From Dehalococcoidia bacterium (GTDB lineage: Bacteria > Chloroflexota > Dehalococcoidia > Lucifugimonadales > UBA3495): 64,000 nt of DNA. Location: NCBI GenBank assembly GCA_963692995.1, contig OY843611.1, forward strand, positions 2,874,440 to 2,938,439, in the 5' to 3' direction. Below, one piece after another: positions 7,075-56,994 of the stretch (position 1 is its first letter; each line of letters begins with the position of its first letter). The translations under genes were made by a program, and so were the position numbers. The notes under the pieces are model-generated. The model saw only the letters and a program-made list of their open reading frames with translations, was not told the origin of the DNA and did no database searches.

Positions 7075-7107
7075 AGTCCCACAGTTGATAGGTCCATCCG
7101 GCTGCGC

Positions 7108-16033: not shown

Positions 16034-16057
16034 TGAACCAAAAGGCCGGAGGCTGCG

Positions 16058-22875: not shown

Positions 22876-23505
22876 ATGGACATTATCATCAACATAATCT
22901 GGGACGGCGGCAAGTGGGTGGTGGGCATTGGCGCCGCTGTACTAGTGATAGCGCTGCTGATTAGCGTGGCTCGTTATGGAATGTCCGCGGGCAATCCCCA
23001 GTCGGCCGCCTCGGCCCGGGCGGCCATGGTCGCCTGCCTGTTTGGCCTGGTCGCCCTGCCTTCGGTTCTGGTAGGCTATCGGCTTTTCTATGCCGACGTC
23101 ATCGCGCCCAATACCGGCAGCGATGTCGCCGTCTTTGAGGTTTCGTGCAATCGCATTTTGCAACGGCAACTGCAAGCTCGGCCAAATGTCGATACAAAGG
23201 GGGAGGTGGATCAGTTAATTAGAGCAATACAGTTGCAGAAGCAGGATTGCGCTAAGGATGCCTGGTCATTGACCCCTTTGAAGAGCAATGCGAGCTTGTG
23301 TACCACACCCTCTAATGGAGATGTAGCAACTTTTCTTCCGCTAGATTCAAACATACCTTTGAAAGAAGCTGTGGGTGCTGAAGGAATCGGGCGCGCGCCC
23401 GGATATATTGTGGTGGTATTTGCGCATGGTAGCAGTAGTGGACTGACGGCTGCGAATGATTGCTGGGGGTACTCCGCTGATCTGGGCCAATGGGTCGCCG
23501 GTTGA
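22876..23505 (+). CDS. small two-TM membrane protein (209 aa) with a compositionally distinct C-terminal domain; possibly VirB2/TrbC-like
   Basis: The N-terminus has two hydrophobic helices (WVVGIGAAVLVIALLISV and MVACLFGLVALPSVLVGY). The C-terminal ~110 codons (about 23170-23400) have much lower G+C than the flanks. Confidence 0.55.
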   Translation: MDIIINIIWDGGKWVVGIGAAVLVIALLISVARYGMSAGNPQSAASARAAMVACLFGLVALPSVLVGYRLFYADVIAPNTGSDVAVFEVSCNRILQRQLQARPNVDTKGEVDQLIRAIQLQKQDCAKDAWSLTPLKSNASLCTTPSNGDVATFLPLDSNIPLKEAVGAEGIGRAPGYIVVVFAHGSSSGLTAANDCWGYSADLGQWVAG

Positions 23506-28484: not shown

Positions 28485-28988
28485 ATGGACTACTGGCACG
28501 AATCGCCCACCTTCCTCAACCGACGCAATGAGCTCGCCCTGGGCCTGTCGCCGGCGCAACTGCTGTTCGTCATGGCTACCCTGGCGATCTGGGGCTTCAT
28601 CTGCCTCATGCTGGGCGCCTGGATCACCATTGCCCTGATCCAGTGGGGACTGGCCCTCCTGGGCGCCGGGGCCACCGTCGCCCTCGCCCTCGTCAAACTC
28701 GGCGGCCTGCGCCTGTACCACTGGCTGGCTCTCTTCGTCTGGCGGCAGCTGAGTCGCCCGATTTACCTGGGCGACCTGGCTACCCTGCTCACCGAGCCAA
28801 CCGACGCCGGAGGCTCGCGTTGGAAAACCGGCGCCGCCCAGGGCTGGCGCAGCCTCCGCGGCAGCGCCGCCCTGCGTCAGGGCATGTGGCAAACCGAAGG
28901 ACACGCCGGCAACTTCTACCGGGGCCTGACCCGCGCCGTCCGCGAAACCGCCCGCTTCTTCTGGAAAGGGCCAGCCCGATCCGGCTGA
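28485..28988 (+). CDS. PrgI / VirB3-like small T4SS membrane protein (167 aa), tentative
   Basis: The N-terminus reads NRRNELALGLSPAQLLFVMATLAIWGFICLMLGAWITIALIQWGLALLGAG. This is a short cytoplasmic lead, a G-L-t/s-x-x-Q-l motif and then two TM helices, as I recall for PrgI/TcpE/VirB3-type proteins. Confidence 0.4.
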   Translation: MDYWHESPTFLNRRNELALGLSPAQLLFVMATLAIWGFICLMLGAWITIALIQWGLALLGAGATVALALVKLGGLRLYHWLALFVWRQLSRPIYLGDLATLLTEPTDAGGSRWKTGAAQGWRSLRGSAALRQGMWQTEGHAGNFYRGLTRAVRETARFFWKGPARSG

Positions 28989-29198: not shown

Positions 29199-29235
29199 CT
29201 TGCCCGCTCACCGACACCCGCGAAGGACAGAAAGC

Positions 29236-31911
29236 ATGGCAACTACATCGTATCAGAAACTCGCCCATCCCGACAATATCGCCCGCTGGCTCCGCGGCCG
29301 CAAGATCGGCGCCAACGACTGGCGCATTCCCCACCTCTGCGGCGGAGAACGCGCCCTTTCCGATAACCCCGGACTGAGCCTGTCCCTGGACAAAAATGGC
29401 CGCACGATTTTTTACTGCCACTACGGCTGCGACCCCGACGATACCAGAGCCGCCCTGGCGCCCTTCGCCGTCGGCCGAGGCAAGGTTCCTCCGCCCATCG
29501 CCCCGCGCCGCTCTTCGCGCAACAACGGCGGCAGCAGCAGCGGCAACGGCGGCAACGGCGGCAGCAGCGGCAACGGTAGCAACGGCGGCAACGGCAGCAG
29601 CAGCGGCAACGGTAGCAACGGCAGCAGCAGCAACGGCAACGGCAATGGCAGCAACGGCGGCCCCTCTTTCGCCCCCGGCAATCACCCCTGCCCCCAGTGC
29701 GGCAACCCCGCCGGGTTTCAGGCCCAGTCCGACCCCCGCTCCGGCTGGCCGATCCTTACCAGCCTCTGCTCCTGCGCCCTTTCCTACTCCCGGATGCTCG
29801 CCGCCCTGCCTCCCGCCGTCGGCGCCGCCTGGCAAGCCTGGGCCGATTACGCCACCGGCGCCGGCTCCCGCCGCATTATCCGCGCTTTTCCCGAAACCGC
29901 TAAATCCGGCAAATCCAAATCCCGCTGGTCCGGCAAAGGCCCTCTGGCCGGTCTGCAACCCCGCCGCTGGCTTCCCGATGCCCCAGCTCAGTCCATCATC
30001 CTCGCCGAAGGCGAAAAGGCCGCCGCCGCCGTCCATTCCGCCCGGCTCAACCTCCCCATCGTCGCCGCCAGCCTCCCCGGCGCCGCCGCCATGGCAACCG
30101 CCGACTACTCCCCCTTCGCCGGATGCGATATCACCGTCTGGCCCGATAACGACGCCACCGGCCAGGCCGCCGCCCAACGCGCCATCGCCGCCCTCTACCG
30201 CGCCGGCGCCGCCACCGTCCGCATGGTCTCCCCCGACGAATGCGCCCGCTTCCTGCCTGCCGACGCCGCTACCGTCGGCTGCGACGCCGCCGACCTGGAC
30301 GCCGCCCTGGTCCGCCTCCTGATCCAGCGCGCCGCTACCGCCGATCCCCCAGTGGAAAAGGACGATCCCTATATGCAGCCGCTACCCTCCGATCTCCTCA
30401 ACTCCGCCAGCCTGCAAGGCGAAAAACCCACCTGCGACGGCACCATGCTCCGCATGCTCTGCGCCGACCAGGGCAGCGGTCTCCTCTTCGCCGCCGCCGC
30501 CGCCGGCTCCCCCGACCAACTCCTGGTCAGCGACGACACCGGCGTCTGGCGGGCCGATACCGGCGAACTCCGCTACCGCGTCCGCGCCGCCGCCTACCAC
30601 TGGGCCGCCGCGGCGCAAGAAGCCGCCGACGCCGGACGAGTCAAGCCCGCCTACGCCCGACAAGTCAAAAACTGGGCGCAGTCCTGCGAAAACGCCGCCG
30701 CCCAAGACCGCGCCCTCGCCTCCGCCGGCGCCGTCTATCACAGCCTGGCCGCCGCCGGCGCCCTCCCCGCGCAACTCCTGGTCAGCTCCGGGGACGCCCT
30801 GGATCAGGACGACGCCAGCCTGGGCGCCCGCAACGGCGTGATCAATTTGCAAACCGGAGAACTCCTCACCGGCGACGCCGCCCGGGCCCGCCGCGTTACC
30901 CGCCGCATTCCCGACGATTACCACCCCGACGCCGTTCATCCCACCCTGGATCGCCTGCTGGAACTGCTGCCCGCCCAGGAAGCCGACGGCCTGTTGGATA
31001 CCTTCGCCTTCGCTCTCGGCGGACAGCCGGCCGGACAAATCGTTCTGCTGGCCGGCCCGCCTAACTCCGCCCGCAGCCTGCTGTCCGCCGCCGTAACCGC
31101 CGTCCTCGGCGACTTCCGCAGCCGCGGCTACGCCATGTCCCTGCACCCCGACGCCCTGCTCCGGCCCCGCGCCAGCGGCGGAGTCTATAGCCACAGCCAT
31201 CAAGCCTGGCTGGTCGGCGTGCAAGACGCCCGCGTCGCTACCCTGCCCAACTTCGACCCGGAGCCGGACGCCGCTCTGGACACCGGCCTGCTCAGCCGAC
31301 TGGACGGCAGCAAAGTCCTCGCCCTGCGCGACGTGGGCGACCGCGCCGGCGTCTCCCGCCCCGCCGCCGCTACTCTCTTCATCCCGGTCAGCGAGCAAAC
31401 CCTCGACGAAACTTTTCTCGATACCTACGGCCGCGAACTGGCCGGACGCCTGCGCGTCTTTCACTTCCCGCCGCAACCCCCCGGACGGGCCGAGGGCAGC
31501 GCCGCCGACTTGCTCCGGGAACCGGCCGGCCGGCAAGCCCTGCTGGCCCGGCTGGTCCGGCGGGCCGCCGCCCTGACCGACCGCCAGGACCCGCCGCAGC
31601 CGCCGACGTACCGCGAGCCGGAAGACGCCGCGCCGTCGCCGCGGGAACGCGCCGCCCGGTGGATCCGCGACTGCGTGGAAGTCACCGGCGACCCGGCCCA
31701 CCGGATCAGCGCCGCCGAACTGATGCGGGCCGCCGCCCAGGCCCTGGGCGGCGACGGACGGGAACGCGCCGGCGGGCTGACCCGCAAAGCGCTGCTGTTT
31801 CTCCTCAAAAGCCACGACCCCAACTTCCCGGAATCGGCGCCGCTGCGGATGGGATCGCAAGTGGCGCGGGGCTACGCCGGCGTGCGCCTCAAGCCGAAGG
31901 CGGGATCGTGA
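29236..31911 (+). CDS. primase-helicase-like protein (891 aa): N-terminal Zn-binding region, Gly/Ser/Asn low-complexity insert, Toprim domain, and a D5/P4-alpha-like NTPase region with a degenerate Walker A
   Basis: ATG at 29236 (MATTSYQKL). Cys/His clusters are HLCGGE...FYCHYGCD and CPQCGNP...CSC. Toprim motifs are IILAEGEKAAAAV ... ITVWPDNDATGQAAA. The P-loop position reads LLAGPPNSARSLL, where GxxxxGK[ST] is expected. Confidence 0.65.
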   Translation: MATTSYQKLAHPDNIARWLRGRKIGANDWRIPHLCGGERALSDNPGLSLSLDKNGRTIFYCHYGCDPDDTRAALAPFAVGRGKVPPPIAPRRSSRNNGGSSSGNGGNGGSSGNGSNGGNGSSSGNGSNGSSSNGNGNGSNGGPSFAPGNHPCPQCGNPAGFQAQSDPRSGWPILTSLCSCALSYSRMLAALPPAVGAAWQAWADYATGAGSRRIIRAFPETAKSGKSKSRWSGKGPLAGLQPRRWLPDAPAQSIILAEGEKAAAAVHSARLNLPIVAASLPGAAAMATADYSPFAGCDITVWPDNDATGQAAAQRAIAALYRAGAATVRMVSPDECARFLPADAATVGCDAADLDAALVRLLIQRAATADPPVEKDDPYMQPLPSDLLNSASLQGEKPTCDGTMLRMLCADQGSGLLFAAAAAGSPDQLLVSDDTGVWRADTGELRYRVRAAAYHWAAAAQEAADAGRVKPAYARQVKNWAQSCENAAAQDRALASAGAVYHSLAAAGALPAQLLVSSGDALDQDDASLGARNGVINLQTGELLTGDAARARRVTRRIPDDYHPDAVHPTLDRLLELLPAQEADGLLDTFAFALGGQPAGQIVLLAGPPNSARSLLSAAVTAVLGDFRSRGYAMSLHPDALLRPRASGGVYSHSHQAWLVGVQDARVATLPNFDPEPDAALDTGLLSRLDGSKVLALRDVGDRAGVSRPAAATLFIPVSEQTLDETFLDTYGRELAGRLRVFHFPPQPPGRAEGSAADLLREPAGRQALLARLVRRAAALTDRQDPPQPPTYREPEDAAPSPRERAARWIRDCVEVTGDPAHRISAAELMRAAAQALGGDGRERAGGLTRKALLFLLKSHDPNFPESAPLRMGSQVARGYAGVRLKPKAGS

Positions 31912-45303: not shown

Positions 45304-45468
45304 GCTGACTCCTTTCTTCCTTGAGGGTAACGAAAAAGTCTTGGCGAGATGCTGAGACTTTTGGTCAGATGGCGCGACGTGGCGAGAACGCAATTTGATC
45401 AACGCTTTTGCCGAACTTGGAGCGAGCAGGGGCGTAGCAACAGCGCTATTAGGCAGCGCTTGTGGTTG

Positions 45469-45984
45469 CTAGGGCGGTTGCCAGTCAAATCTGGCACCAA
45501 ACGCGCGTAGCATAGCGATGGTATTCATGCTGCGGATTTGGAACTGATTGCAGAGGTCAGGCAGTGGAACTTTGCGTTTCGCATCCGGCGCGGAGACTTC
45601 GTTGGTTACTACGACTGCGCCGTGAACAATGGCATAGGCAGCGAGCCAACCGTCCGCTCCTCGAGCGAAATCAGCGCGGGCCACTGGGGTGAATTGCGAG
45701 TTTTCCTGTACCCAATCCATTAGTTGCTGATAAGCATTGGCGACGGGCGGTGTAGCCGTAGTAGGAAAGTAGTCGTTAGTAGCCTGTTTTATCCACTGAG
45801 ATAGCTCTAAGGGATGGATTATTTCGGCGCTTACTCGATCTATAATCAGGAGATGTCCGGTAGCCAAGTGGTGAATCAGCCAGTCCCAAAAGCCGGGGAA
45901 CAGGTCCGGTGGGTAGCGATTACGGTACGCCGCGATCAGGACATCGGCATCCGGCAAGTAGCGAGTTTGACCGTGATTGGTCAT
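45469..45984 (-). CDS. DUF4411 family (PIN-like) protein
   Basis: YLPDADVLIAAYRNRYPPDLFPGFWDWL matches the DUF4411 N-terminal signature. Its start overlaps the upstream stop (ATGA). Confidence 0.75.
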   Translation of the reverse strand: MTNHGQTRYLPDADVLIAAYRNRYPPDLFPGFWDWLIHHLATGHLLIIDRVSAEIIHPLELSQWIKQATNDYFPTTATPPVANAYQQLMDWVQENSQFTPVARADFARGADGWLAAYAIVHGAVVVTNEVSAPDAKRKVPLPDLCNQFQIRSMNTIAMLRAFGARFDWQPP

Positions 45985-47147
45985 AGACGGAGGGCCATCT
46001 TTTCGGGCATATTGGCAAAAGCAGAGGGGCTCAGATCGGTGAGGACGCAGGCTTCACGGTACGGCAAACGGCCGGCTTGCATGGCGCGCACTACCGTCTC
46101 GGCAAAGCGTCGTCCGATGCGCCAGCTTTGGTTATTCCAGAAATTGCCGCTGCTCTTGGTTAGCTGGCTGCGGCTTCCCTGGTTTTTGTGAGCGTTATAG
46201 AAATCAAAAAATGTCTCTCGGTCAATCAAGTCCAAGTCAAGAGCGCGGCGCGCGGCTACAATGCGGCTGACTTTGAAGTGGTGCGCTGCTTGCTGGTAGG
46301 GATCGAGATATTCGCCGACGTAATCCCAGAACTCTCTGAATTCAATCTCCGGCACTAGAAACTCTGCCGCTATTTTATCGCACAGTTGTTCAGTAGCGTG
46401 TGCCGATGGCAGCAGTAACTCAAAGGCCGAAACCCCTTCTGATCCGACGAAAAGATGCGCTAATTCATGGGCCAGGGTGAACATCTGAGCAGATCTGAAG
46501 TCGGCGTTATTCACGAAGATGAACGGGGCGTACTCGTCCACCAACGCAAAGCCTTGGAATTCGCCAGGGTTGAGCTTGCGGCTGGTGTTGTTGCCCACCA
46601 CCCCGTTGCAGACTACCAGTATGCCGGCGCGCTCCGCCTGATCCCGAAGCAGTCGGATGGCGTCGGACCAGGTGGGCGCGGATGAAGCCCAATCGTCGTC
46701 AAGTAGGAGCGCATCGCGCATTGCGCCGGCCACCGCTCCGTAATCCCCGTTGAGATGGTGAGCGCCGACGAAATCAAGGGGATCGGCGCCGGTGTCAATC
46801 AATTCTTCTCGCATCCAGTCCTGACGCCGCTGCATCGAGTAAATTGTTTCCAGCAAGTCAACGCTGGGACGCGCCGGCGCCTCACTGGCGCGGGTGCGGA
46901 AGTCTTGAATGGGCAGATGCTCATAGGGCGGGAAAGACAGGAACAAGTAACCCAAAGGCGTATGGGTGGCATGGGCTAGTCGCTTGGCCCAGGCCATGCT
47001 GATTTGGCCGGAGCGTTCCCATTCCAGAACCCGCTCTACGCGCAGCTTGATCTTCTGCGCCAGTGCATCGTGCTTCAACTCGGCCCGCTCACGCGCCCAG
47101 CGTAGAACGTCAGGTTGTAGTAGCAGAAGTTCCGGTTGGCGAGTCAT
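45981..47147 (-). CDS. XRE-type HTH plus ImmA/IrrE family zinc metallopeptidase
   Basis: The N-terminal HTH-like region reads LRWARERAELKHDALAQKIKLRVERVLEWERSG. The HExxH motif lies in FTLAHELAHLFVG. Confidence 0.8.
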   Translation of the reverse strand: MTRQPELLLLQPDVLRWARERAELKHDALAQKIKLRVERVLEWERSGQISMAWAKRLAHATHTPLGYLFLSFPPYEHLPIQDFRTRASEAPARPSVDLLETIYSMQRRQDWMREELIDTGADPLDFVGAHHLNGDYGAVAGAMRDALLLDDDWASSAPTWSDAIRLLRDQAERAGILVVCNGVVGNNTSRKLNPGEFQGFALVDEYAPFIFVNNADFRSAQMFTLAHELAHLFVGSEGVSAFELLLPSAHATEQLCDKIAAEFLVPEIEFREFWDYVGEYLDPYQQAAHHFKVSRIVAARRALDLDLIDRETFFDFYNAHKNQGSRSQLTKSSGNFWNNQSWRIGRRFAETVVRAMQAGRLPYREACVLTDLSPSAFANMPEKMALRL

Positions 47148-47167
47148 GATGGCACTATCTGGGCTGG

Positions 47168-47197
47168 ATGTTAGTTAGAGGAAGGGCAATTTGTCAA
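47168..47197 (-). promoter_or_regulatory. candidate sigma-70-type promoter for the ImmA/IrrE-DUF4411 operon
   Basis: On the minus strand: TTGACA (47192-47197), 18-bp spacer, TAACAT (47168-47173). It lies ~20 nt upstream of the ATG at 47147, with no SD, so the transcript may have a short leader or none. Confidence 0.3.
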
Positions 47198-47207
47198 ACG
47201 GCATGGT

Positions 47208-47410
47208 GTGGCATATCTTCACACTGCCCCCGCGACGCCAAAGCCGAAGGTAGCGCCCGCTAACACGCCCGTTCCGGTTGAAGATGACGGTTCGGGTTCA
47301 ATCCAACGTCCTTACTGCGAAAGGTTTCCGTCATCGGCTCTCTGTTGTCGATCCAGCCCTACGGCTACGCTGAGGCCGGTTCTCAGGAATACGCCGGTTC
47401 CGACGAATAG
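47208..47410 (+). pseudogene. fragment related to the N-terminal PT-rich / PYCER module of the 1734-aa repeat protein
   Basis: 47311-47400 aligns by eye with 50230-50320 (cttactgcgaaagg ... ctacggctacgc ... ggccggtt ... gaatacgcc). The peptide RPYCERFPSSALCCRSSPTATLRPVLRNTPVPTN corresponds to LPYCERNPWAYSCRALNSTATPRPVPTNTPTP. Confidence 0.35.
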
Positions 47411-47736
47411 GCTGACGCCCCAACCAGGCCGCCGATCCGGTGAATGTAGCGTTCTTTTCCGTCGCCGGGGATGGCGTCGGGCAGCCAACGGAGCCGGTCT
47501 TCCGTGGTGTCGGTCAGGTGTATCCAATAGGAATGGGCGTCGGGCAGGGGATGCCAGCTGAGTTGTACGGCGCCGTCGGTCTCGCTCCAGTGGGCGGTTA
47601 GGCTAAATTCGTGGGGTGTCCGGGCGTCGTCATCCGGCCCGTCGGCTTCCGCCGGTTGGACGGCGATTGTGATTGCAGCCCAGAGGCCAGCAACGAGTAG
47701 GGCGAGAACGGGGAGCGTGAACTTGGCGTATGATAT
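47383..47736 (-). pseudogene. truncated duplicate of the LRR-protein 5' end, with ATG replaced by ATA
   Basis: 47443-47754 is collinear with 49003-49314 (offset 1560) and includes the same AAGGAGATCAAGCC leader. The start position reads ATA. The 117-codon frame reads ISYAKFTLPVLALLVAGLWAAITIAVQPAEADGP...LTAHWSETDGAVQLSWHPLPDAHSYWIHLTDTTEDRLRWLPDAIPG... and then diverges and stops. Confidence 0.6.
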
Positions 47737-47805
47737 GGCTTGATCTCCTTGGATCAGTTCAACGCTTTTGCGAAATTGGTTGCGGAGTATTTTTGCGGTT
47801 GGGCT

Positions 47806-49296
47806 TTATTTTTGGTCTCGGATCAGGTCAATGCGGACGGTGCCGGCGGGGCTGCTCCATCCGGTGAAGCCGGTTCCGTCATAGTGTTTCCAGGTTATGT
47901 TCCGGCTGGTATAGACGAATTTGTATCGCGCGTTCAGCTTGTGCGCCCGGCTTACCGTTTCGTCGTAATTTTCCAGGGATGCGTATATGTAGATCGCCCT
48001 GAGGCGGTGCAATCGCTCCCGGACCAAGGGGTGCAGGTCATTGAGCCGGTTTTCGTCAATGCCAATGTTATTTAGTTTGGGCAGATGGTCAAACCATTGG
48101 TGATTTAGCGTCGCCAGCGGATTTCCCGAAACTTGTAGGGTATGCAATGAGGGAAGATTTTCAAAGGCGTCGGGGCGGATCTCGGCGATGCCATTGTCGC
48201 GGAGGTCAAGAATGCCCAGTCTTGTTTGGGCGGGGAACAGATCGGGTGGCAGCCGGGTCAGGCCGGGGTTCTGGCAAAGGTCAAGCACGCGCAGGCCGGT
48301 TAGTCCGGCGAAGGTTCCTGGCTCCAGGGCGGTAAGTTTGTTGCCGCACAGGACCAGGTATTGCAGACTGGCGAGATCATTGAAAAGATTGGGATCGATA
48401 CTTGCCAGCTGGTTGTCTTGAATCCAGAGTCGCTTTAAGCGGGGCAGGTTACGGAAAGTCCCCGGTTCGATTTCGGTCAGCTGATTGTGGCCGAGATAGA
48501 GAATGGATAGCTCAGGCAGGTTCTGGAAGGTGTCGGGATGCAGTTCGCTGATCCGGTTGGTGTGCAGCCAGAGTTGGGTCAGATTAGGCAGGTTCTGAAA
48601 GAGGTCGGGATGCAGTTCGCTGATCCGGTTTTCGGACAGAATTAGTCTGCTCAGATTGGGCAGGTCATTGAAGTCGCCGGGCTTCAGGGCAGTCACTTCT
48701 TTTTGTTGCAGAACCAGGAGGGTGACCTGGGCGAGGTCTCCCGCGGTTACTTCCGAGCAGCGGCTTTTGTCGGTTTGCCGGATCAGTTCGGCAACCACTT
48801 CGGGGGTACGGTCGCAAACCGGTATCGGCCCGGTTCGGGGTTTGGGGGTGGGAAGGACAGCGGATAACCAAGCGGCGCGGTTGGGCAGCCGGATCAGTGC
48901 GCTGGGGTTGGACCAATTGTTCTGATAGTGCGCCGCGTTTTTACGTCGGGCGATGATCTGAAAGGTGTAGTCCGCCTCTTCGTTCAGGCCGTTAACCGGG
49001 TAAATGTAGCGTTCTTCACCTCCGCCGGGGATGGCGTCGGGAAGCCAGCGGAGCCGGTTTTCCGTGTTATCGGTCAGGTGTATCCAATAGGAATGGGCGT
49101 CGAGCAGGGGCTGCCAGCTGAGTTGTACAGCGCCGTTGGCCTCGTCCCAGTGGGCGGTTAGGTCAAACTGGTGGCGGGGCAGGGCTTCGTGATCCGGTCC
49201 GTCGGCAAAGGTGGGCAGAGCGGCGGCTGAAATTGTTGCGAAGAAGCCGGCGACGAACAGAGCGAGAACGGAGAGCGTGAACTTGGCATAAGACAT
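47806..49296 (-). CDS. secreted leucine-rich-repeat (LRR) protein with an FN3-like N-terminal domain (496 aa)
   Basis: ATG at 49296 (MSYAKFTLSVLALFVAGFFATISAAA) follows AAGGAGA. It has about 11 consecutive ~24-aa LRRs, e.g. LPNLSRLILSENRISELHPDLFQN, LPNLTQLWLHTNRISELHPDTFQN and LPELSILYLGHNQLTEIEPGTFRN. Confidence 0.8.
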   Translation of the reverse strand: MSYAKFTLSVLALFVAGFFATISAAALPTFADGPDHEALPRHQFDLTAHWDEANGAVQLSWQPLLDAHSYWIHLTDNTENRLRWLPDAIPGGGEERYIYPVNGLNEEADYTFQIIARRKNAAHYQNNWSNPSALIRLPNRAAWLSAVLPTPKPRTGPIPVCDRTPEVVAELIRQTDKSRCSEVTAGDLAQVTLLVLQQKEVTALKPGDFNDLPNLSRLILSENRISELHPDLFQNLPNLTQLWLHTNRISELHPDTFQNLPELSILYLGHNQLTEIEPGTFRNLPRLKRLWIQDNQLASIDPNLFNDLASLQYLVLCGNKLTALEPGTFAGLTGLRVLDLCQNPGLTRLPPDLFPAQTRLGILDLRDNGIAEIRPDAFENLPSLHTLQVSGNPLATLNHQWFDHLPKLNNIGIDENRLNDLHPLVRERLHRLRAIYIYASLENYDETVSRAHKLNARYKFVYTSRNITWKHYDGTGFTGWSSPAGTVRIDLIRDQK

Positions 49297-49427
49297 GGCT
49301 TGATCTCCTTGGATAAGGGGCTGGCTGGTTGGGAAGGTGGCCCGGAAACGGGCCATCGTAAAATTCCGGGTTATCTGTTTGCTGCGAGATAACGCGGGCG
49401 GCGGGACGCCGGCCCGACGGGAAGGCG

Positions 49428-52400
49428 ATGATGGTAGCAGTATGGGCGTTGATTTGGCAGTTTCGGCGGGTCGCGCTGCTGGCGGTTCCGCTGCTGGTGC
49501 TTCTGGCGATTATGAGCCTGGGCTGGTTCGCTCAAACCGGCTATGGCGACTTTCATCCTCCTGAGTCTCTTCCGGACCCTGGTATCACAAAAGATGATCA
49601 AGAGATTGTTACTGAGGTAGAGAGGGGGGAAGATGCGAATGGGAGGCCGTTTGCAGAGATTACGAAGGGTCGAGATGACATGGGCTATCATACCCATTGC
49701 CGTGGCGCTGGGTGCGACGGCGGCGGCGGCGGCGATGATGACGAACCTGATGCTCAGGATATAGCAAATACCGCGGCCGCAGATGAGATGCGGAGGGCTA
49801 CGCTAAGGGCGGCCTGGACGCCGACGCCTACGCCGAGGCCGACGCGGACTCATTGCGAGAAGTATCCGGGCAGTACGTTCTGCGTCACGCCGGAGCCCAC
49901 GCGGCCCTTTTGCGAGAGGAATCCGGATCATCATCGGTGTTCTACGGCATCGCTAAAGCCAACGCCGGCGCCCACGTCCTCGCTTACTTCTGCTCAGTAT
50001 TGCGGGAAGTATGGGGATGGTTCAAACGCCAGCGGCGCATGGTGTCATAACCACTTTTATACGCCCACGCCCCGGCCCACGGCAATGCCGACGCCCCGGC
50101 CCACGTCTGCTGCCACGGCAATGCCGACGCCCCGGCCCACGGCAATGCCGACGCTACGGCCCACGGCAATGCCGACGCTACGGCCCACGCGGGCGCCCAC
50201 GCTTGCGCCCACGCTTGCGCCCCAACTTCCTTACTGCGAAAGGAATCCGTGGGCGTATTCCTGCCGTGCGCTTAATTCTACGGCTACGCCCAGGCCGGTT
50301 CCCACGAATACGCCGACGCCCCGGAACGATGGCGACCGCCCGCCGGACTACGCCGCAACTCGCCGCGCGGAATCCGACCTGGCGACTCGTCGCGCTGAAA
50401 TCGACAACCTGGCAACCCGCCGCGCCGAAATCGCCGACCTCGCAACCCGCCGCGCCGAAATCGACAACCTGGCAACCCGCCGCGCTGAAGCCGCCGATCT
50501 GGCAACCCGTCAGGCGGAAGCCCTCAATCTCGCCACTCGCCGCGCCAACGCCGATCTGGCAACCCGCCGCGTGGCATCCGACCTGGCTACCCGCCGCGCC
50601 GAATCCAACCTGGCCACCCGCCGCGCCGAGGCCGACGCCGACCTCGCCACCCGCCGCGCCGACGCCAACCTCGCCACCCGCCGCGCCAACGCCGACCTGG
50701 CAACCCGCCGCGCTGACGCCGCCGACCTGGCAACCCGCCGCGCTAACGCCGACCTGGCAACTCGCCGCGCCAACGCCGACCTCGCTACCCGTCGCGCTGC
50801 CGCCGACCTGGCAACCCGTCGCGCTGCTGACCTCGCCACCCGCCGCGCCGCCGACCTGGCAACCCGTCGCGCCGCAGCCGCCGCCACCCGCGTCGCCATC
50901 GATACCCTGCGCCGGGCCGCGTTGGATGCCGCCAAGCAGGCCAACCGGGCCGCTGAACTGGCCGAAAAGGCCGCCGATTTAGCCGATGCCACTACCGGCG
51001 GGTCGGATAAGGCCGAGGAACGCATCACCGATGCCCGCGGCAAGGCCGACGCCGCCGACACGGCGGCCCGCATCGCCGAAAAGGCCGCGGACCGGGCCCG
51101 CAACACCGGGCGCCCCGACGCCGTGCGCGCCGCCGACCAGGCTGATCAGGCCGCCAAACGGGCCCGCGACGCCGCCATCCGCGCTCGTGTCGCTGCCGAC
51201 CGCCTGGCCGACCGCGTGGCCTTGCACCAAGCGAGGGAGCAGGCGCTGAAAGACGCCACCGCCGTCGTTGCCGACGCTTTACGAGCCAAGACTAAGGCTG
51301 ATGAGGCCGCGGACCAGGCCGATGCCACCACCGGCTCCGACCCGAAGGCTAAGAGCATCGCCACCGTGGCCCGGAAGGCGGCCGACGACGCTTTCGAGAA
51401 GGCCGACCTGGTGGACGATGTGGCCGAGCGGCTGCGCCGACTGGGACTGACCGACCATGCCGACCGGCTGGAACGGATTGCGGATCTGGTGCGCGACGCC
51501 GGCCGCAAGGCCGACTTGGCCGCCGCTAATCTGGAAGAGCGCATCGCCGACGCCCAGTCGGACCAGGCTCTGATCGACGCCGCAGACACCGCCGCCCGCA
51601 ACGCCGACGTAGCGTCCCGCGATGCCCACACCAAGGCGGCCGACGCGGAAAGCGCCGATTGCGCCGCCGCCGACGCTGCGGATAAAGTCGCCGCGGCGGA
51701 AGACGCCGGGCGAATCGCCCGGCAGAAGGCCGACCTGGCGGAGGCGGCGGCCGGCCGGGCCGCTGCCGCCGGGCTAAAAGCCGCCGCCGGCCGGGCCCAG
51801 CGCGCTGCCGGCCGGGCCGACCGGGCCGCCGACCGGGCCTTCCGGGCGGCGCGCAACCTGGCGGCCTGCATCCGGCAAGCCGAGATCGATGCGGCAACCG
51901 ACGCGGCTAACGACGCCGCCGACGCTGCCAACGTCGCGGCGGACGCGCTGGCCGCGGCGGACTGCTCCGACGCCGACGTTGCGGACAAGATTGCGGCGGC
52001 GCAGGAACGGGCGGCGCTGGCCGTCGGCAAGGCGCGGGAGGCCCGCGCCGCCGCTGGCCGGGCCCGTCGGGCCGGCTTGACCGACGCCTCGGCGCGGGCC
52101 AACGCCGCCGCCGGCCGCGCCGAGGCGGCGGCGCAGCGCATCGCTACGTTGCTGGCCGATTTGTCAGCCTGCGTTCCCGGCGCGGCAACGGATGCCGACG
52201 CCCTGGCGAAAGCCGCCGAGGATGCCGCCGACGCTGCTGTCGCGGCGGCGGAAGTCGCTAATGACGCGGCGGACGATGCCGACGCCGTAGTAAAGGCCGC
52301 GGACTGCTCCGACGCCGCCGCTCCCGGCAAGGTCGCCGCGGCGCGGGCCGCCGCCGTTGCCGCGGACCGGAAGGCCCACGCCGCCCGCGTGGCCGCCGCC

Positions 52401-54632
52401 GCCGCGCGTCGCGTGGGACGGACGGACGCTGCGGATAAGGCTGACCGCGCCGCGGCTGCCGCATCATCCGCCGCCGACCGAGCTACTGCTTCGGCGCTGA
52501 CCCTGGAACTCTGCATTTTGGAGGCGGCGACCGACGCCGCCGCTGATGCGGCGAATCGGGCGGCCAAGGTTGCCAACGCCGCCGCGGACGCCGCGGACGC
52601 CGCTGATCCGGCCGCCGCCGACGCCACCGATAAGGTCGTCGAGGCCCGCAGGGCCGGCAAGGACGCCCTGGTCAAGGCTGACGCGGCGGAAGACGCGGCT
52701 GGCAAGGCCCGCGTCGCCGGCTTGATCAAGGCCGCGGACCGGGCGAAGGCCGCCGCGGATCGGGCCCGGACGGCGGGCCGACGGGCCCTGGCGGCCGCCG
52801 ACAATCTGGCGGCTCGGATTGTCGCCGTCCGGTCGGTCTCCGCCATTTGCGACGCGGCGCGTCAGGCGGCGACGGACGCCAATACCGCCGCGGACGTGGC
52901 GAACCTGGCCGCGACGCAAGCCGACAAGGCTGATCCGTCGGCTTCCGACGCCAAGGCTAAGGCTGACCGGGCCGAAGCCGCCGCCGACCGGGCGTCGGAG
53001 CAGGCTCGCATTGCCGAAGTCAAGGCGGATCTGGCGAACAAGGCCGGCTGCATCGCGGACGGCGACGCCGCGGTCGCGGCGGCGGTGCGCGCTCGTGACG
53101 CCGCCCAGAAAGCGCGTCAGGCGGCGGCCGACCTGAGGGCGAAAATCGCCGCGCTGGGCCAAACGCCGGACGGCAGCGACACGTTGGCCTTGCGTCAGGA
53201 GGTGGCCGACGCCATCGCCGCCGCCCGATTGGCGGCGCAGCGGGCCGACGCTGGCGTCAAGGCGTTGCAGGATGTTGATTGCTCGGCGGATAACGCGGCG
53301 GCTGAAGCGGCGCAGGTGGGCGCTTGGGCAGCGCAGGCCCGGTTGAAGGCCGCGGCATTGCGCGAGGCGGGCAGCCGCGCGGCGGCGGCCGGCTTGTCGG
53401 CGCTGGCCGGCGACGCGGCCCGGATCGCCGGCGCGACGGAGGCCGCGGCGCAGCGGGCTTGGGACGCGATGCAGGCCAAGAACGCTTGCATCCGCGCGGC
53501 CGGCGGCGACGTAATTGCGCCGGTTGACACTCTGGACGATGCGGCCGACGCTCTGAAGGACGCGGTGGACGGCGCGCAGGACGCGGCGGATGATGCGGAC
53601 GGCTACGCGGATCGCGCGGAGGATTACGCCGACCAAGCGCGGGATAAGGCGGATGCGATAGAGGGAGACCCGGAGGCCAGCGACCAGGCCAAAGCCGACG
53701 CGCGCCAGGCTAAAGCCGATGCGCGGACCGCCGCGGATCAGGCGCGGACCGCCGCGGATCGGGCGCAGGACTTGGCGGACGATGCCGCCCAGCCGGAAGT
53801 CACCCTGACGCAGGCTCAGCAGCTCCGGAAGGCTGCCGAGGAAGCGCGGGATGCGGCGCGGGAGGCCATGGCCCAGGCCGCCGCCGCCGTAGGCCGGTTC
53901 ATTGTCATCATTCGCTTTTTGCCGCCGCCGACGCGGATTTACGTGCGGCCGACGCGCCGCTCTTTCTGGCGGACGCCGACGCCGCGCCCGACGCCGACGC
54001 CGGCGCCGTCATCCTTCGCCGGACCCGTGGGCAGCCCGGGCGAGGCCGTGCCGGTGGCAATGCCCCGGCCCAGGCCGGCGCCGCGTTGGTTCGAGACGGG
54101 CCGGATGGCGCGGGCCGAGCCGCGGGCCGCCGGCGCCGCGGCCGGCCGGGTTCCTCTGCTGGCTATCGGTTCAGGAGTTCGGCTGGGCCGGCCTTGGGGA
54201 GCGGCGGAGCAGGCCGCGCCGCCGTCCTGCCCCGGTCGGCAAGAGGAAATGGATGCTTACCGGGCGATGTTCGCCGAGCAGCAAACGGCCATAGCCGATC
54301 CGGACGCCGCTGCCGGCAAAGCGCTACCGGCGCTGGAAACCCCCCATGCCTACTGCGCCCGGTTGCAGTTGCTGGACTCCGTGCGCGGCTTTCTCCGTTC
54401 CATCACCGGCCTGGTTCTGGCGCTGACCGGGATGCTGCTGCTCTTTGTCGTTATCGTCTGGGGTCTCGACGCCGGCTCTTCGCAAACCCGGAGCTGGGTC
54501 CGGCAGACGGCTTCCGGCTCCCTGGTCGCCACAATCGGCGTGAGCGCCCTCTGGGGGTTTTACGAAATCGTCCTGGGCGCTTTGCTGGGCGTCGGTTTGT
54601 CCAGCGGTTATTTCTACTTTTTCTTTCCCTAA
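49428..54632 (+). CDS. giant Ala/Asp/Arg-rich repeat protein (1734 aa) with an N-terminal TM anchor, PT-rich linkers, an octapeptide array, long helical repeats and a C-terminal two-TM module
   Basis: One uninterrupted ORF. The N-terminus reads VALLAVPLLVLLAIMSLGWF. PTPRPTAMPT linkers and PYCERNP Cys modules follow, then about 19 DLATRRAE-type repeats and about 8-9 units of ~100-115 aa. The C-terminus reads ITGLVLALTGMLLLFVVIVWGL...LVATIGVSALWGFYEIVLGALLGVGL. It lies directly upstream of the VirB4-like gene. Confidence 0.75.
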   Translation: MMVAVWALIWQFRRVALLAVPLLVLLAIMSLGWFAQTGYGDFHPPESLPDPGITKDDQEIVTEVERGEDANGRPFAEITKGRDDMGYHTHCRGAGCDGGGGGDDDEPDAQDIANTAAADEMRRATLRAAWTPTPTPRPTRTHCEKYPGSTFCVTPEPTRPFCERNPDHHRCSTASLKPTPAPTSSLTSAQYCGKYGDGSNASGAWCHNHFYTPTPRPTAMPTPRPTSAATAMPTPRPTAMPTLRPTAMPTLRPTRAPTLAPTLAPQLPYCERNPWAYSCRALNSTATPRPVPTNTPTPRNDGDRPPDYAATRRAESDLATRRAEIDNLATRRAEIADLATRRAEIDNLATRRAEAADLATRQAEALNLATRRANADLATRRVASDLATRRAESNLATRRAEADADLATRRADANLATRRANADLATRRADAADLATRRANADLATRRANADLATRRAAADLATRRAADLATRRAADLATRRAAAAATRVAIDTLRRAALDAAKQANRAAELAEKAADLADATTGGSDKAEERITDARGKADAADTAARIAEKAADRARNTGRPDAVRAADQADQAAKRARDAAIRARVAADRLADRVALHQAREQALKDATAVVADALRAKTKADEAADQADATTGSDPKAKSIATVARKAADDAFEKADLVDDVAERLRRLGLTDHADRLERIADLVRDAGRKADLAAANLEERIADAQSDQALIDAADTAARNADVASRDAHTKAADAESADCAAADAADKVAAAEDAGRIARQKADLAEAAAGRAAAAGLKAAAGRAQRAAGRADRAADRAFRAARNLAACIRQAEIDAATDAANDAADAANVAADALAAADCSDADVADKIAAAQERAALAVGKAREARAAAGRARRAGLTDASARANAAAGRAEAAAQRIATLLADLSACVPGAATDADALAKAAEDAADAAVAAAEVANDAADDADAVVKAADCSDAAAPGKVAAARAAAVAADRKAHAARVAAAAARRVGRTDAADKADRAAAAASSAADRATASALTLELCILEAATDAAADAANRAAKVANAAADAADAADPAAADATDKVVEARRAGKDALVKADAAEDAAGKARVAGLIKAADRAKAAADRARTAGRRALAAADNLAARIVAVRSVSAICDAARQAATDANTAADVANLAATQADKADPSASDAKAKADRAEAAADRASEQARIAEVKADLANKAGCIADGDAAVAAAVRARDAAQKARQAAADLRAKIAALGQTPDGSDTLALRQEVADAIAAARLAAQRADAGVKALQDVDCSADNAAAEAAQVGAWAAQARLKAAALREAGSRAAAAGLSALAGDAARIAGATEAAAQRAWDAMQAKNACIRAAGGDVIAPVDTLDDAADALKDAVDGAQDAADDADGYADRAEDYADQARDKADAIEGDPEASDQAKADARQAKADARTAADQARTAADRAQDLADDAAQPEVTLTQAQQLRKAAEEARDAAREAMAQAAAAVGRFIVIIRFLPPPTRIYVRPTRRSFWRTPTPRPTPTPAPSSFAGPVGSPGEAVPVAMPRPRPAPRWFETGRMARAEPRAAGAAAGRVPLLAIGSGVRLGRPWGAAEQAAPPSCPGRQEEMDAYRAMFAEQQTAIADPDAAAGKALPALETPHAYCARLQLLDSVRGFLRSITGLVLALTGMLLLFVVIVWGLDAGSSQTRSWVRQTASGSLVATIGVSALWGFYEIVLGALLGVGLSSGYFYFFFP
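50346..50890 (+). repeat. coding array of about 19 degenerate 7-11-aa repeats ((D/N)LATRRA(E/N/D)xx)
   Basis: DYAATRRAESDLATRRAEIDNLATRRAEIADLATRRAEIDNLATRRAEAADLATRQAEALNLATRRANADLATRRVASDLATRRAES... Confidence 0.9.
50990..53650 (+). repeat. about 8-9 divergent ~100-115-aa Ala-rich helical repeat units, several carrying a conserved Cys pair (approximate bounds)
   Basis: Recurrent unit starts include TTGGSDKAEERI, TTGSDPKAKSIA, ESADCAAADAADKVAAA, AADCSDADVADKIAAA, AADCSDAAAPGKVAAA, ADPAAADATDKVVEA, ADPSASDAKAKADRA and VDCSADNAAAEAAQ. A second Cys occurs in LAACIRQ, LSACVPG, LELCILE, SAICDAA, AGCIADG and NACIRAA. Confidence 0.7.
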
Positions 54633-54669: not shown

Positions 54670-56994
54670 ATGACCAGGGCAATGACGGCGGCGACGCGGC
54701 GGATCAAAAGGGCGACGGCCGATTTGCTGCGTCCGCAGCGGCACGTCGGCGACCTGCTGGGCGTGGACGCCGCCGGCGCCGACTTCGTGCTGGGTAGCGA
54801 CGGAGCGCGCACTTGCGCCTGGCAGATCGCCAGCCAGGATTTCCGCGACGAACGGACGCTGGCGGCCTGGCGGCGCTTTCTGCTGGCCCTGCGCTTTCCG
54901 GCGTCCTTTCTGGTGCGGCAGCATCCGCCGGGGTTCGGCGAACTGATCGACTGGTTCGAGCGGCGTCGTCCGCCGGGGCTGAGTTCGGGCGTTCCGGCCG
55001 CCGTCGGCGACTCCCTGACCCACTGGCTAAACCGCCTGCCCGGCGACGGGGACGCGCTGGATCGGGAAATCTACCTGCTGACCGGTCAGGATCACGCCGC
55101 CGACGCGGAGTCCCTGCTGGTCGCGGCCGGCTGGGCCGCCCGCCCGGTGTCCGGCGACGATCTGCGACGGCTGTGGGCGGCCAGCGTAGCCGGCCGTTCC
55201 GCCAGCTCCTGCTACGGGATGGAGCCGGGGGATGTGGCCGTTCCCGACTGCGCGCCGGGCGTGAGCAGCCTGCGCCTGGGCCAGCGCTGGGTTCGGGTCT
55301 TTGAAGTTGACCAGTGGCCGCGGCGGCTCTCGCCGATGTTTCTGGAAAGCGTGTTCGGCCTGGGCTTTGAGTTGGACTTCATCCTGCGCCTGTACCCGCT
55401 GAACAAGGCGGAATCCCTCGGCTTTCTCAATATGAAGAAACTGGCTTTCGAGTCCCAGCAGATCCATCTGATCAAGCGGGGCCGGCTGGTGCCGCCGGAG
55501 GTGGAAGGCGGCATCGGCGACGCGGATCGGATGCTGGAACAGCTCAGCCGCAACGAAGGCGGCCTGTTCCGGGTCGCCGCGTCGCTGGCCCTGTACTGCG
55601 ACACGCCGGAAGCCCTGGAGGAAGCCGGTCGGCAGGTCAAAATCCATTTCCAGGGCATGCAGGCCGGCGCCCGTCCCTTCCGCTTGCGCCAGGGCGAAGC
55701 CTTTGCCCGGCTGATGCCCCGAATGCAGTCGCCCCTGGGCGCTTTGCATATGGTGGATCAGGGAACGGTGGAACGCCTCTTTCCCTTCGGCCCGCCCCGG
55801 CTCAACACCGGGGTGGGCATTCCTTTCGGGATGGATTTCCGCAGCCGCGACGTGGTGGTCTTCGACCGTTTCGCCACCGGCGGCTTCACGGCGGAATCGG
55901 ACCGGCTGGGGGTGGGCGAAGTCCGTCGCAACCCGCATATGACGGTGCTGGCGCCGGCCGGTTCGGGGAAGTCTTTCGCGGTCAAGGTGCTGGCCCTGCG
56001 GGAATGCAGCCGGGGCATTCCGGTGTATTTGATTGACCCGGAAGGGGAATACGCCTTGTTGGCTCGGCAGATGGGCGGACGGGTTTTCCATCCGGGCCGG
56101 GAGAACTCCGGCGTCAACCCCTTTCAGCTGATCTATCAGTCGGTGGATCAATTGGCGCTGCAAGTGGCCGGGCTGGTTGCGCTGCTGGAGATGATGCTGG
56201 CCCGGCGCGGGCCGGCGTCGGGCCTGGAGACGACGCTGGACTATTGCCTGAACCGGTTTTATCAGCAGGAACTGGCGCAAGCGACGGAGCCGTCGCCGGT
56301 TCTGGGCAACGGCGGGATTTTCGCCTTTGAGCGTTTCCTGCGGGAGCTGGCGGTCAGCGTCGTCGAAGCCGGGACGCTGGCCGACGAACTGGCTCCCTTC
56401 GTTACCGGCAGCTATCGGTTTCTTTTCGCGCAAGAAGGGGACTCCGCCCTGGTCCAGCGGGAGGAAGCGCCCTTCACCGTGTTCAATTTGCAGGCGCTGC
56501 ACGACGATATGAAAGCGGCGGCGACGATGCTCTGCTGCCAGACGGTGTGGGGGCTGGCGATGTCGGTGACCCGGCCTCGGCTGATGGTGGTTGACGAATG
56601 CTGGACGGTGCTGATGTCGCCCAGCGGCGCGCAGGCTCTGATGACCATGGTCAAGCGGGGGCGCAAGTATCGTTTGGGACTGGTTACGATTACGCAGGAC
56701 ATTGAGGACTTTCTGGACGGGGACAGCCAGGCGGGGCTGGCTGGCCACGCCGGACTGTCGCTGCTGGCTAATTCCGCGGACTGCTTTCTGCTGCGGCAGA
56801 GTCCGGGGGCGGCGGAACTGATCCAACGCAAGTTGGCCTTGAGCGATGAACAGCGGGTTTTCTTGACCCAGGCGCGGGTGGGCGAAGGACTGCTGCTGAC
56901 GGATCAGGGCAGTTTTCCGGTGCGGGTGGTGGCGACGCCGGCCGAGTACGAACTGATTGAGAACGACGGCTGGCGCAGGGACGCGGCGGGTTAG
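54670..56994 (+). CDS. virB4: VirB4 / TraE / TrbE-like type IV secretion ATPase (774 aa)
   Basis: Walker A is VLAPAGSGKSFAVKVL. Walker B is LMVVDECWTVL. Downstream sequence reads GRKYRLGLVTITQDIEDFLDG. The N-terminal half has the typical VirB4 length and layout. Confidence 0.8.
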   Translation: MTRAMTAATRRIKRATADLLRPQRHVGDLLGVDAAGADFVLGSDGARTCAWQIASQDFRDERTLAAWRRFLLALRFPASFLVRQHPPGFGELIDWFERRRPPGLSSGVPAAVGDSLTHWLNRLPGDGDALDREIYLLTGQDHAADAESLLVAAGWAARPVSGDDLRRLWAASVAGRSASSCYGMEPGDVAVPDCAPGVSSLRLGQRWVRVFEVDQWPRRLSPMFLESVFGLGFELDFILRLYPLNKAESLGFLNMKKLAFESQQIHLIKRGRLVPPEVEGGIGDADRMLEQLSRNEGGLFRVAASLALYCDTPEALEEAGRQVKIHFQGMQAGARPFRLRQGEAFARLMPRMQSPLGALHMVDQGTVERLFPFGPPRLNTGVGIPFGMDFRSRDVVVFDRFATGGFTAESDRLGVGEVRRNPHMTVLAPAGSGKSFAVKVLALRECSRGIPVYLIDPEGEYALLARQMGGRVFHPGRENSGVNPFQLIYQSVDQLALQVAGLVALLEMMLARRGPASGLETTLDYCLNRFYQQELAQATEPSPVLGNGGIFAFERFLRELAVSVVEAGTLADELAPFVTGSYRFLFAQEGDSALVQREEAPFTVFNLQALHDDMKAAATMLCCQTVWGLAMSVTRPRLMVVDECWTVLMSPSGAQALMTMVKRGRKYRLGLVTITQDIEDFLDGDSQAGLAGHAGLSLLANSADCFLLRQSPGAAELIQRKLALSDEQRVFLTQARVGEGLLLTDQGSFPVRVVATPAEYELIENDGWRRDAAG

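Follow-up and report, generated by a model that had tools for sequence, protein, structure and literature searches.

What is a repeat protein of 1734 residues, placed directly upstream of the gene of a VirB4-type ATPase, doing in a type IV secretion system (T4SS)? The question is raised by an open reading frame (ORF) at positions 49428-54632 of a 64,000-nucleotide stretch of contig OY843611.1 (positions 2,874,440 to 2,938,439 of the forward strand) from the Dehalococcoidia bacterium assembly GCA_963692995.1, a member of the Chloroflexota; the whole of this stretch is referred to below as the window. The window is a T4SS-bearing, mobile-element-like region, whose monoderm-type system is related to the one of Patescibacteria (PMC12102498). 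A preliminary description of the locus had proposed that the protein is a pilin-like membrane module fused to a long surface fibre or adhesin. On balance, sequence comparison leads us to favour a similar answer, namely that the gene encodes a modular T4SS pilin-like fibre, which would serve in contact or adhesion and be tethered to the secretion system.

All six parts that had been distinguished in the protein could be located, and its N-terminal portion, initially described as a transmembrane (TM) anchor followed by Cys modules and helical repeats, has indeed the features of a secreted, Cys-bearing, all-alpha, repetitive and fibre-like region. The features are as follows (L and P numbers denote loci and proteins used for comparison).

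49428-54632, plus strand: giant repeat-protein gene, 1734 open codons (codon-position GC; intact 1754-aa ortholog in L090)
49428-49538, plus strand: signal peptide or signal anchor, aa 1-37 (Kyte-Doolittle hydropathy peak 2.49)
49542-49727, plus strand: hypervariable acidic tip, aa 39-100, with Cys91/Cys96 and a GGGGGDDDE run (comparison with L090 and L091)
49728-50351, plus strand: small C-x8-C Cys-loop modules on Pro/Thr linkers, aa 101-308 (motif and repeat inspection)
50355-50912, plus strand: twenty short repeats of 8-11 aa, 'DLATRRAxx', aa 310-495 (Tandem Repeats Finder, TRF; motif spacing)
50958-53867, plus strand: nine all-alpha repeats of ~107 aa, aa 511-1480 (iterated hidden Markov model, HMM, on the protein; AlphaFold2)
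53868-54218, plus strand: basic Pro/Arg-rich linker, aa 1481-1597, net charge +13 (composition)
54219-54629, plus strand: conserved C-terminal module, aa 1598-1734 (phmmer, profile search, alignment, AlphaFold2)
54402-54467, plus strand: TM1 of the module, aa 1659-1680 (hydropathy)
54468-54521, plus strand: polar loop of 18 residues between TM1 and TM2
54522-54599, plus strand: TM2 of the module, aa 1699-1724 (hydropathy)

The C-terminal module possesses a juxtamembrane segment with Cys1601 and Cys1643 and a loop, DAGSSQTRSWVRQTASGS, with two Arg; AlphaFold2 models it as a helical hairpin (pLDDT 80-89) of two long helices joined by a four-residue turn. Its relatives are few. Exhaustive phmmer against 1.84 billion representatives revealed only P0067 (151 aa), P0068 (132 aa), P0069 (183 aa) and P0070 (797 aa), and two more, P0072 (159 aa) and P0073 (204 aa), emerged when 5.8 billion sequences were searched with a profile, which brings the family to seven members in about 2-6 billion proteins; a word-indexed search with the C-terminal 129 aa returned only the near-identical fragment P0067. 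Three of these proteins (P0067, P0068 and P0072) are pieces of larger genes, split by frameshifts in long-read contigs, and in L082 and L088 the homology extends upstream of the called start codons in the frame of the module. P0070, encoded on a short-read contig, is uninterrupted. The intact members share a signal peptide, an unrelated ectodomain of variable length (~80 to 1600 aa, often with PT linkers and Cys), the juxtamembrane segment with the consensus WC..G.FD..LD.YYARV ... E.P..C[AS]R, and the hairpin, whose loop carries the motif G-(D/S)-S-P-Q-T-x-x-W-A-R. The last ~137 residues of the window ORF are homologous to a protein, designated X, of L083 and L089 (tblastn E 1e-10). The size-variable orthologs sought in the preliminary description were thereby found, as both the orthologs and the module-family members differ in size.

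Profile comparisons point to the VirB2-like pilins of PF18895 as the kin of this family, in accordance with the similarity that had been expected of its C-terminus. The reference set consisted of 20 proteins of Patescibacteria (Candidate Phyla Radiation, CPR) from pilin arrays adjoining VirB4 (alignment A5), eight representatives of which are Pfam-confirmed as PF18895. Against this set hhalign gave a probability of 78% (E 1.8e-5, 77 columns, full hairpin register) for the module family (A4) and 79% for the short forms alone (A8), and the module (A2) matched the family (A3) of a 209-aa pilin of the window at 67%. When 5192 ORFs from all loci were searched with the CPR pilin HMM, P0073 (E 2.3e-5) and P0069 (E 6.3e-5) were retrieved, next the 210-aa protein of L085 with a weak PF18895 match (0.059), and then unrelated proteins with E ~1. 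The module HMM, run on 176 small CPR ORFs with 2-3 TM segments, had pilin-array genes as all of its ten best matches. The loop motif of the module aligns with S-G-G-D-P-K-x-x-x-x-A-K of the CPR pilins, while the control, a PrgI-like family of two-TM proteins, yielded 1.1% against the module and 0.3% against the CPR pilins. With PF18895 itself, P0070 aligned in the correct register at E 0.19 and the 210-aa L085 relative at E 0.016, both under the gathering cut-off of 26.6 bits. The window protein has the pilin layout, that is, a signal peptide and two hydrophobic helices with a short polar/basic loop between them.

A number of observations weigh against this assignment. The window module has no match to PF18895 or PF04956 in Pfam at E<=10, let alone at the PF18895 gathering score, its E-value with the CPR pilin HMM is 14, and an earlier version of the module alignment (A2) reached only 22% against the CPR pilins. 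All Foldseek matches of the module were non-significant, with the Aeropyrum (archaeal) conjugation pilin 8dfu at rank 4; since helical hairpins and repeats match many unrelated folds, fold matches were given no weight, and a sequence search of PDB returned nothing significant. A pilus lattice calls for a small mature subunit (about 70-150 aa), and here 1734 aa are found, with ~1600 of them before the hairpin; such an extension on every subunit is hard to fit into a packed lattice, the short family members (183-204 aa) being nearer to pilin size. Furthermore, the window has a more canonical pilin at another place (22876-23505), and the long forms of L082, L087 and L088 do not adjoin virB4. Because the window's own module lacks a Pfam match, its pilin membership is remote and transitive, and the evidence for it, drawn from profiles, is moderate and not decisive. 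What stands of the original pilin analogy is therefore the remote profile link to PF18895, while a PF18895 or TrbC match in Pfam for the window module is missing. Taking both sides into account, we consider the module likely to be a T4SS_pilin-type hairpin of divergent sequence rather than a VirB3-like one.

The proposed mechanism is as follows. The protein would be exported via its N-terminal signal peptide (Sec), and its last ~80 residues would insert in the membrane as a VirB2/T4SS_pilin-type helical hairpin with both ends outside and the basic loop inside, so that everything before the hairpin would be extracellular. The basic Pro-rich linker would span the cell wall; the nine disulfide-stapled ~107-aa helical repeats, together with the ~20 short helical repeats, would form a rod tens of nanometres long, carrying the PT-linked Cys loops and the hypervariable acidic tip at its distal end. 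Acting with the neighbouring VirB4 and the monoderm-type (Chloroflexota/Patescibacteria-like) T4SS, the fibre could take part in target-cell contact or adhesion, with a hairpin by which it would either join the pilin assembly of the T4SS as a minor subunit or be held next to the channel. In this scheme we infer signal cleavage, topology, disulfides, rod length, adhesion and filament incorporation. Sterics disfavour the giant protein as a major subunit, for which the 209-aa protein is a better candidate. We are doubtful of a bolder version, in which the hairpin would be functional as a VirB2-type pilin module and the protein would be incorporated by VirB4 and VirB6, along with the 209-aa pilin, into a pilus-like structure, here in a monoderm outside Patescibacteria, that would display a ~50-100-nm rod with a hypervariable tip that selects the recipient. 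If it were true, T4SS pilins could, like type IV pilins, carry grafted functional modules, and conjugative-pilus-like filaments would occur in monoderm lineages other than Patescibacteria.

The alternative that survives best is that the gene encodes a surface protein of the element (an adhesin, a surface-exclusion or a coat protein), whose hairpin is a mere membrane anchor, never handled by the T4SS as a pilin; its likeness to pilins would then reflect old shared ancestry without shared function, or convergence of two-TM proteins. Gram-positive conjugation typically employs large repeat-rich proteins of the surface, among them PrgA, PrgB and PrgC, in place of pili (PMC12857230), and the long-form relatives remote from virB4 are located beside a CAP-domain gene, as might befit surface exclusion of the PrgA type. 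The failure of the window module with the Pfam pilin models and a size incompatible with a major pilin agree with this explanation as well. However, conservation embraces the module as a whole, with the loop motif that aligns with the CPR pilins, the unrelated two-TM control family scores about 1%, and the short forms of 183-204 aa resemble ordinary pilins with a small ectodomain and are encoded in a pilin-PrgI-X-VirB4 operon. On these grounds we regard a plain membrane anchor as rather unlikely, though worth keeping in view, and retain the pilin-like fibre as the preferred reading.

Another alternative concerns the gene itself: the fusion could be artefactual or decaying, with two or three genes in reality (a repeat protein and a two-TM protein of ~130-150 aa), joined by assembly indels or by the loss of a stop codon. 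The GC content of the window DNA is 65-75%, and codon-position GC was checked because long spurious ORFs are frequent in such DNA. In the frame of the ORF, from ~49.5 to 54.6 kb, GC peaks at codon position 3 and has its minimum at position 2, and the phase shifts exactly at the start of the next gene. The sole stretch where codon-position GC is uninformative (53950-54250) corresponds to the Pro/Arg-rich part and speaks for a division there, as does an in-frame ATG at 54249 with a weak Shine-Dalgarno-like GAGGA; the Met is not conserved in the module family, and an internal start at this codon could yield a stand-alone pilin. Public gene calls do split the region, into 782+, 341 and 151 aa in L086, 634+159 aa in L082 and 843+132 aa in L088. 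Yet in L086, a public contig of 7.5 kb with 95.7% identity, all the splitting indels are 1-nt insertions in C/G runs (window positions 53044, 53982, 54068 and 54148). They look like long-read homopolymer errors, since the window-frame peptide runs on through L086 frames 0, 1, 2 and 0. In L082 and L088 homology is found ahead of the called starts as well, and the motif WC..G.FD..LD.YYARV spans the supposed junction in every family member.

A further comparison is with L090, a 3.15-Mb contig from an independent sample, which harbors in the equivalent position an uninterrupted 1754-aa ortholog (95% identity), 37 nt upstream of a VirB4-type ATPase; the annotated start of this ORF is an internal Met chosen by the gene caller. 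A third copy of the gene, in L091, is interrupted by one frameshift only, where the short repeats end (about position 6215 of L091). Within the long repeats 57 synonymous and 41 nonsynonymous codons differ between the window and L090, and 71 of the 116 base differences are at codon position 3, indicating that these repeats are under purifying selection. Considering the codon-position GC, the L090 ortholog, the frame continuity in L086 and the bias of differences towards position 3, the ORF is a conserved, translated-looking gene and no assembly artefact, which makes a split or decaying gene very improbable. The ORF of the preliminary description is thus upheld, with an intact counterpart in the L090 assembly, and the fusion is genuine, the same layout being present in the unrelated intact P0070 (797 aa, short-read) besides L090. 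Splitting of the module family by single-base homopolymer indels was observed in L086, in L082 (21150-21280), in L088 (upstream of 9800) and in L091. This is a practical warning: the gene is routinely broken up in public long-read assemblies, and what databases list as 'proteins' of 132-159 aa (P0067, P0068 and P0072) are parts of far longer genes. Neither the full protein nor P0001 gave a record in an exact look-up.

The remaining alternative, raised in the preliminary description as well, that the module is a VirB3/PrgI-type protein docking to VirB4 and fused to a surface domain, accords with the classical VirB3 position of a two-TM hairpin right before virB4 but is hardly tenable, given the 1.1% of hhalign with the PrgI-like family of the same elements, the separate PrgI-like gene at 28485-28988 (located in L083 between two pilin-like genes), and the signal peptide and 1600-aa ectodomain, which would put both ends of the hairpin outside and leave VirB4 a cytoplasmic loop of 18 residues.

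As to the ectodomain of the putative fibre, the protein as a whole is rich in Ala (29.6%), Arg (10.4%) and Asp (10.0%). By hydropathy its N-terminal hydrophobic segment occupies aa 7-38. The conserved motif A-x-(T/V/A)/G-Y after the hydrophobic core (AQT/GY in the window, AQV/GY in L090, AEA/GY in L091) suggests a signal-peptidase cleavage site at the slash; with the signal peptide cleaved, the mature N-terminus would be the distal end of the fibre. The N-terminal part contains Cys pairs at 91/96, 143/152, 162/171, 192/206 and 270/279. Three C-x8-C loops (CEKYPGSTFC, CERNPDHHRC and CERNPWAYSC) are joined by PT-rich linkers, with 24-nt units detected by TRF at 50113-50189. Pfam gave only a weak PT-repeat match for the Cys-loop/PT part (aa 101-308), and Pfam and NCBIfam searches with the module, the N-terminal 308 aa and the whole protein produced nothing informative. 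The short repeats are built on an 'ATR[RQV]' core present in 20 units; TRF reports a period of 27/30 and ~19 copies, and the direct-repeat families D1, D2 and D6 cover the region. Repetition at the DNA level is confined to the PT linkers and the short repeats, the latter being the only strongly repetitive part.

The long repeats have diverged to 60-78% identity at the DNA level. First-pass phmmer detected four further copies (E 1e-11 to 2e-3), and nine were found after iteration; as this was self-iteration on low-complexity sequence, the later scores are inflated. A repeat-pair alignment (A6) that had been aligned by identity and not by register was dropped in favour of A7. Four of the long repeats carry Cys pairs at i,i+69 (745/814, 846/915, 960/1029 and 1285/1354), and a fifth pair, 1141/1208 (i,i+67), is out of register and spans repeats 6 and 7. 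AlphaFold2 predicts long antiparallel helices of 26-60 residues for repeats 3 and 4 (pLDDT 90, pTM 0.79). In this model the loop preceding helix A and the B-C loop, which hold the Cys positions, are found at one end of the antiparallel bundle, and the pairs may form a disulfide staple. The units resemble spectrin three-helix repeats in length (~106-107 aa) and in their predicted long antiparallel helices, but spectrin appears in the Foldseek results only at rank 23 (E 1.3), shows no sequence match and has no Cys staples. Foldseek and PDB sequence searches with the long repeats gave no significant match, and no Pfam family covers them. By analogy with the ~5 nm of a spectrin-type repeat, nine of them would span ~45 nm. 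The amino-acid sequence of the Pro/Arg-rich linker that follows is conserved in L090 and, across the frameshifts, in L086. There is no LP.[TSA]G sortase motif anywhere in the protein, and a Pfam search of the whole protein for adhesin domains gave only a sub-threshold Alanine_zipper.

The neighbouring genes on which the argument draws are listed below.

54670-56994, plus strand: VirB4-type T4SS ATPase, 774 aa (Pfam AAA_10, P-loop_TraG, DUF87)
22876-23505, plus strand: 209-aa VirB2-like pilin (PF18895 E 5e-4, sub-threshold)
28485-28988, plus strand: PrgI/VirB3-like small membrane protein (tblastn E 1e-23 to virB4-adjacent proteins in L082 and L083)
18940-22791, plus strand: extended VirB6/TrbL-like protein, 1283 aa (PF04610 E 5e-4, sub-threshold; TrbL-like position in L081/L082)
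1984-5121, plus strand: VirD4-like coupling protein (PF10412 TrwB_AAD_bind, DUF87)
29200-31911: D5/Toprim primase
47806-49356, minus strand: secreted LRR/fn3 protein, divergently transcribed (Pfam LRR_8 E 1.6e-55; signal peptide present)

The window therefore contains VirB6-like, PrgI-like and VirD4-like genes along with virB4. The stop codon of the giant gene lies 37 nt before the virB4 ATG, which has a GGAGG 7 nt upstream, and the two genes are probably co-transcribed. A hairpin with a T-rich run at 54582-54607 (+), in the codons for GYFYFFFP that close the ORF shortly before virB4, might dampen transcription running on into the ATPase gene; terminator-like sites in the region around it are not enriched over shuffles, and a scan for promoters and terminators produced counts not above the shuffled expectation.

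The 209-aa protein, encoded directly after the VirB6-like gene, has an N-terminal hairpin and a Cys-containing C-terminal ectodomain of ~135 aa. Its family aligns with the CPR pilins at 97.4% (hhalign, E 1.4e-11), NCBIfam names it a 'pilin-like conjugal transfer protein' (E 2.5e-4), and by sequence it is the clearest VirB2-like pilin of the system. The preliminary description had noted that the giant gene occupies the usual place of a pilin or VirB3-like gene; the better VirB2-like pilin is the 209-aa protein, the giant protein being a second, divergent paralog. The PrgI-like protein has a homolog in L082 that matches PF12666 PrgI at E 2e-4. Membership of the giant protein in the VirB3/PrgI family was also considered as a candidate and rejected, no PF12666 match being found and hhalign with the PrgI-like family of related elements giving 1.1%.

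VirB4 homologs with 34-50% identity come from large metagenomic contigs, the few named ones being Chloroflexota (35-37% identical); matches on plasmids belong to Actinomycetota and Bacillota. Among species-representative genomes the VirB4 search retrieved only Patescibacteria, at 23-32% identity and with no synteny for the giant gene. The core gene order is VirB6, pilin(215), PrgI-like(153-171), VirB4 in L081 and L082, and pilin(196), PrgI-like(184), X(183-204), VirB4 in L083, L084 and L089. In the relatives the core T4SS genes are contiguous, whereas in the window they are spread over about 36 kb, with cargo at 23600-49400 (primase, DUF4365, DUF5131 and many genes without a family match). In the window, L086, L090 and L091 virB4 follows directly on the giant gene, and in L083, L084 and L089 it follows directly on one of three short forms. 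The long form of L082 belongs to the same element as virB4 without being adjacent to it. The linkage to virB4, which the preliminary description had made a test of its proposal, thus holds for L086, L090, L091 and the short forms and does not extend to the long forms of L082, L087 and L088, which lie elsewhere in the element.

Beside long forms there is a gene of a large CAP-domain (PF00188) protein, at 2740-4827 (-) in L087 and 5593-7290 (-) in L088, together with a UvrD or SNF2 helicase. PrgA, the surface-exclusion protein of pCF10, also has a CAP domain, of which this neighbour is reminiscent. The window was found to lack a CAP homolog, and likewise homologs of the P0070 ectodomain and of the CAP-domain/UvrD neighbours. 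At 14135-16888 (-) the window encodes a 917-aa protein with sigma-70 regions 2 and 4 only in its C-terminal 200 residues, and a similar gene flanks the T4SS cluster in L081. Three distinct VirB4 variants with >=90% identity (P0001, P0076 and P0077) are each recorded on a 3,293,860-bp contig, which suggests several copies of the element in one genome.

The preliminary description regarded the fusion as undescribed. Its scale is indeed unique, but the principle is shared by proteins of 247-576 aa in the T4SS loci of Patescibacteria, where PF18895 modules occur inside larger proteins, mostly encoded immediately downstream of virB4. These have a C-terminal module at 247-266 aa or an N-terminal module at 519-576 aa, and one has two modules; several of the 519-576-aa proteins score above the PF18895 Pfam cut-off. 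The corresponding genes are the following.

L005, 12583-14277; L008, 11713-13329; L009, 5240-6970; L012, 12071-13630: larger PF18895 proteins
L007, 11729-12472; L010, 12404-13204; L034, 7160-8428: larger PF18895 proteins, continued

Such larger PF18895-module proteins are not mentioned in PMC12102498 or PMC12857230. The window protein is the extreme, in a Chloroflexota lineage, of a broader and apparently undescribed theme of a pilin module plus an ectodomain.

According to reviews, monoderm T4SSs lack VirB2-type pilins, Patescibacteria being the sole exception (PMC12857230); the latter possess arrays of small divergent VirB2-like pilins, which are essential (PMC12102498, PMC12857230). These PF18895 pilins, distant relatives of TrbC/VirB2 (PF04956), resemble the window protein in the signal peptide and the hairpin with a basic loop G-D-(P/S)...A-(K/R), in a Cys just before helix 1 in some members, and in their T4SS loci with VirB4, PrgI/VirB3-like, VirB6 and VirD4 and several divergent paralogs per locus. 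They differ in their usual size of 100-150 aa, against 1734 aa here with ~1600 aa between signal peptide and hairpin, and unlike them the window module is below every Pfam threshold and its host belongs to Chloroflexota. In contrast to the chromosomal epibiont system of Patescibacteria, the window element has a VirD4-like coupling protein and primases, which give it the look of a mobile element. The locus would accordingly place VirB2-like pilins outside Patescibacteria, in a Chloroflexota mobile element with a coupling protein, and the pilin hairpin would be usable as a portable C-terminal module for unrelated ectodomains of 80 to 1600 residues.

In function the closest analogies are the modular type IV pilins and the sortase-anchored Gram-positive adhesins, neither of which the window protein belongs to. 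Modular type IV pilins such as PilB of Streptococcus sanguinis (PMC8179133) likewise join a conserved docking pilin moiety to a grafted functional or adhesive module, but they are of an unrelated superfamily (type 4 filament, single N-terminal helix, prepilin peptidase) with other machinery, and the comparison is an analogy only. PrgB, PrgA and PrgC of pCF10 and TraO of pIP501 are, like the window protein, large repeat-rich secreted proteins of monoderm T4SS clusters, with a Pro-rich segment ahead of the anchor to cross the wall, a long stalk of helices in the case of PrgA, and a proposed role in contact or exclusion. The window protein differs from them in having no LPXTG, no polymer-adhesin, CAP or other Pfam domain, and a two-TM anchor, and there is no sequence similarity. 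CagY/VirB10 of Helicobacter and the extended VirB6 of Rickettsiales also combine a core T4SS membrane module with a long repeat region, including Cys-containing helical repeats whose copy number changes between strains; however, the core modules are others (VirB10 and VirB6), the bacteria are diderm, and there is no homology. The giant fibre is a concrete candidate for making and diversifying cell contact in T4SSs of the kind found in the window.

The variation between orthologs is concentrated in the distal part of the predicted fibre. In the tip (aa 39-100) 43 nonsynonymous and 12 synonymous codons among 62 differ from those of L090. The first ~300 residues of the L091 protein bear a different set of Cys loops, the remainder being ~95% identical, and L090 has two extra PT linker units (16 aa). 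The variable block at 47757-50354, which covers the divergent LRR/fn3 gene and the 5' end of the giant ORF, shares 80-83% identity with L090 and L091, whereas its flanks share 95-97%. The variable tip, together with the equally variable LRR neighbour, suggests that recognition of the recipient is under diversifying pressure. In L081 and L082, too, the T4SS is accompanied by LRR genes. Next to the variable block, at 45421-47756, the window and L091 share a cassette that L090 lacks, with an M78/IrrE-type peptidase gene (45981-47147) and, upstream of it, a small gene annotated as DUF4411 in L091; the difference looks like the insertion or deletion of a toxin-antitoxin or defence-like module.

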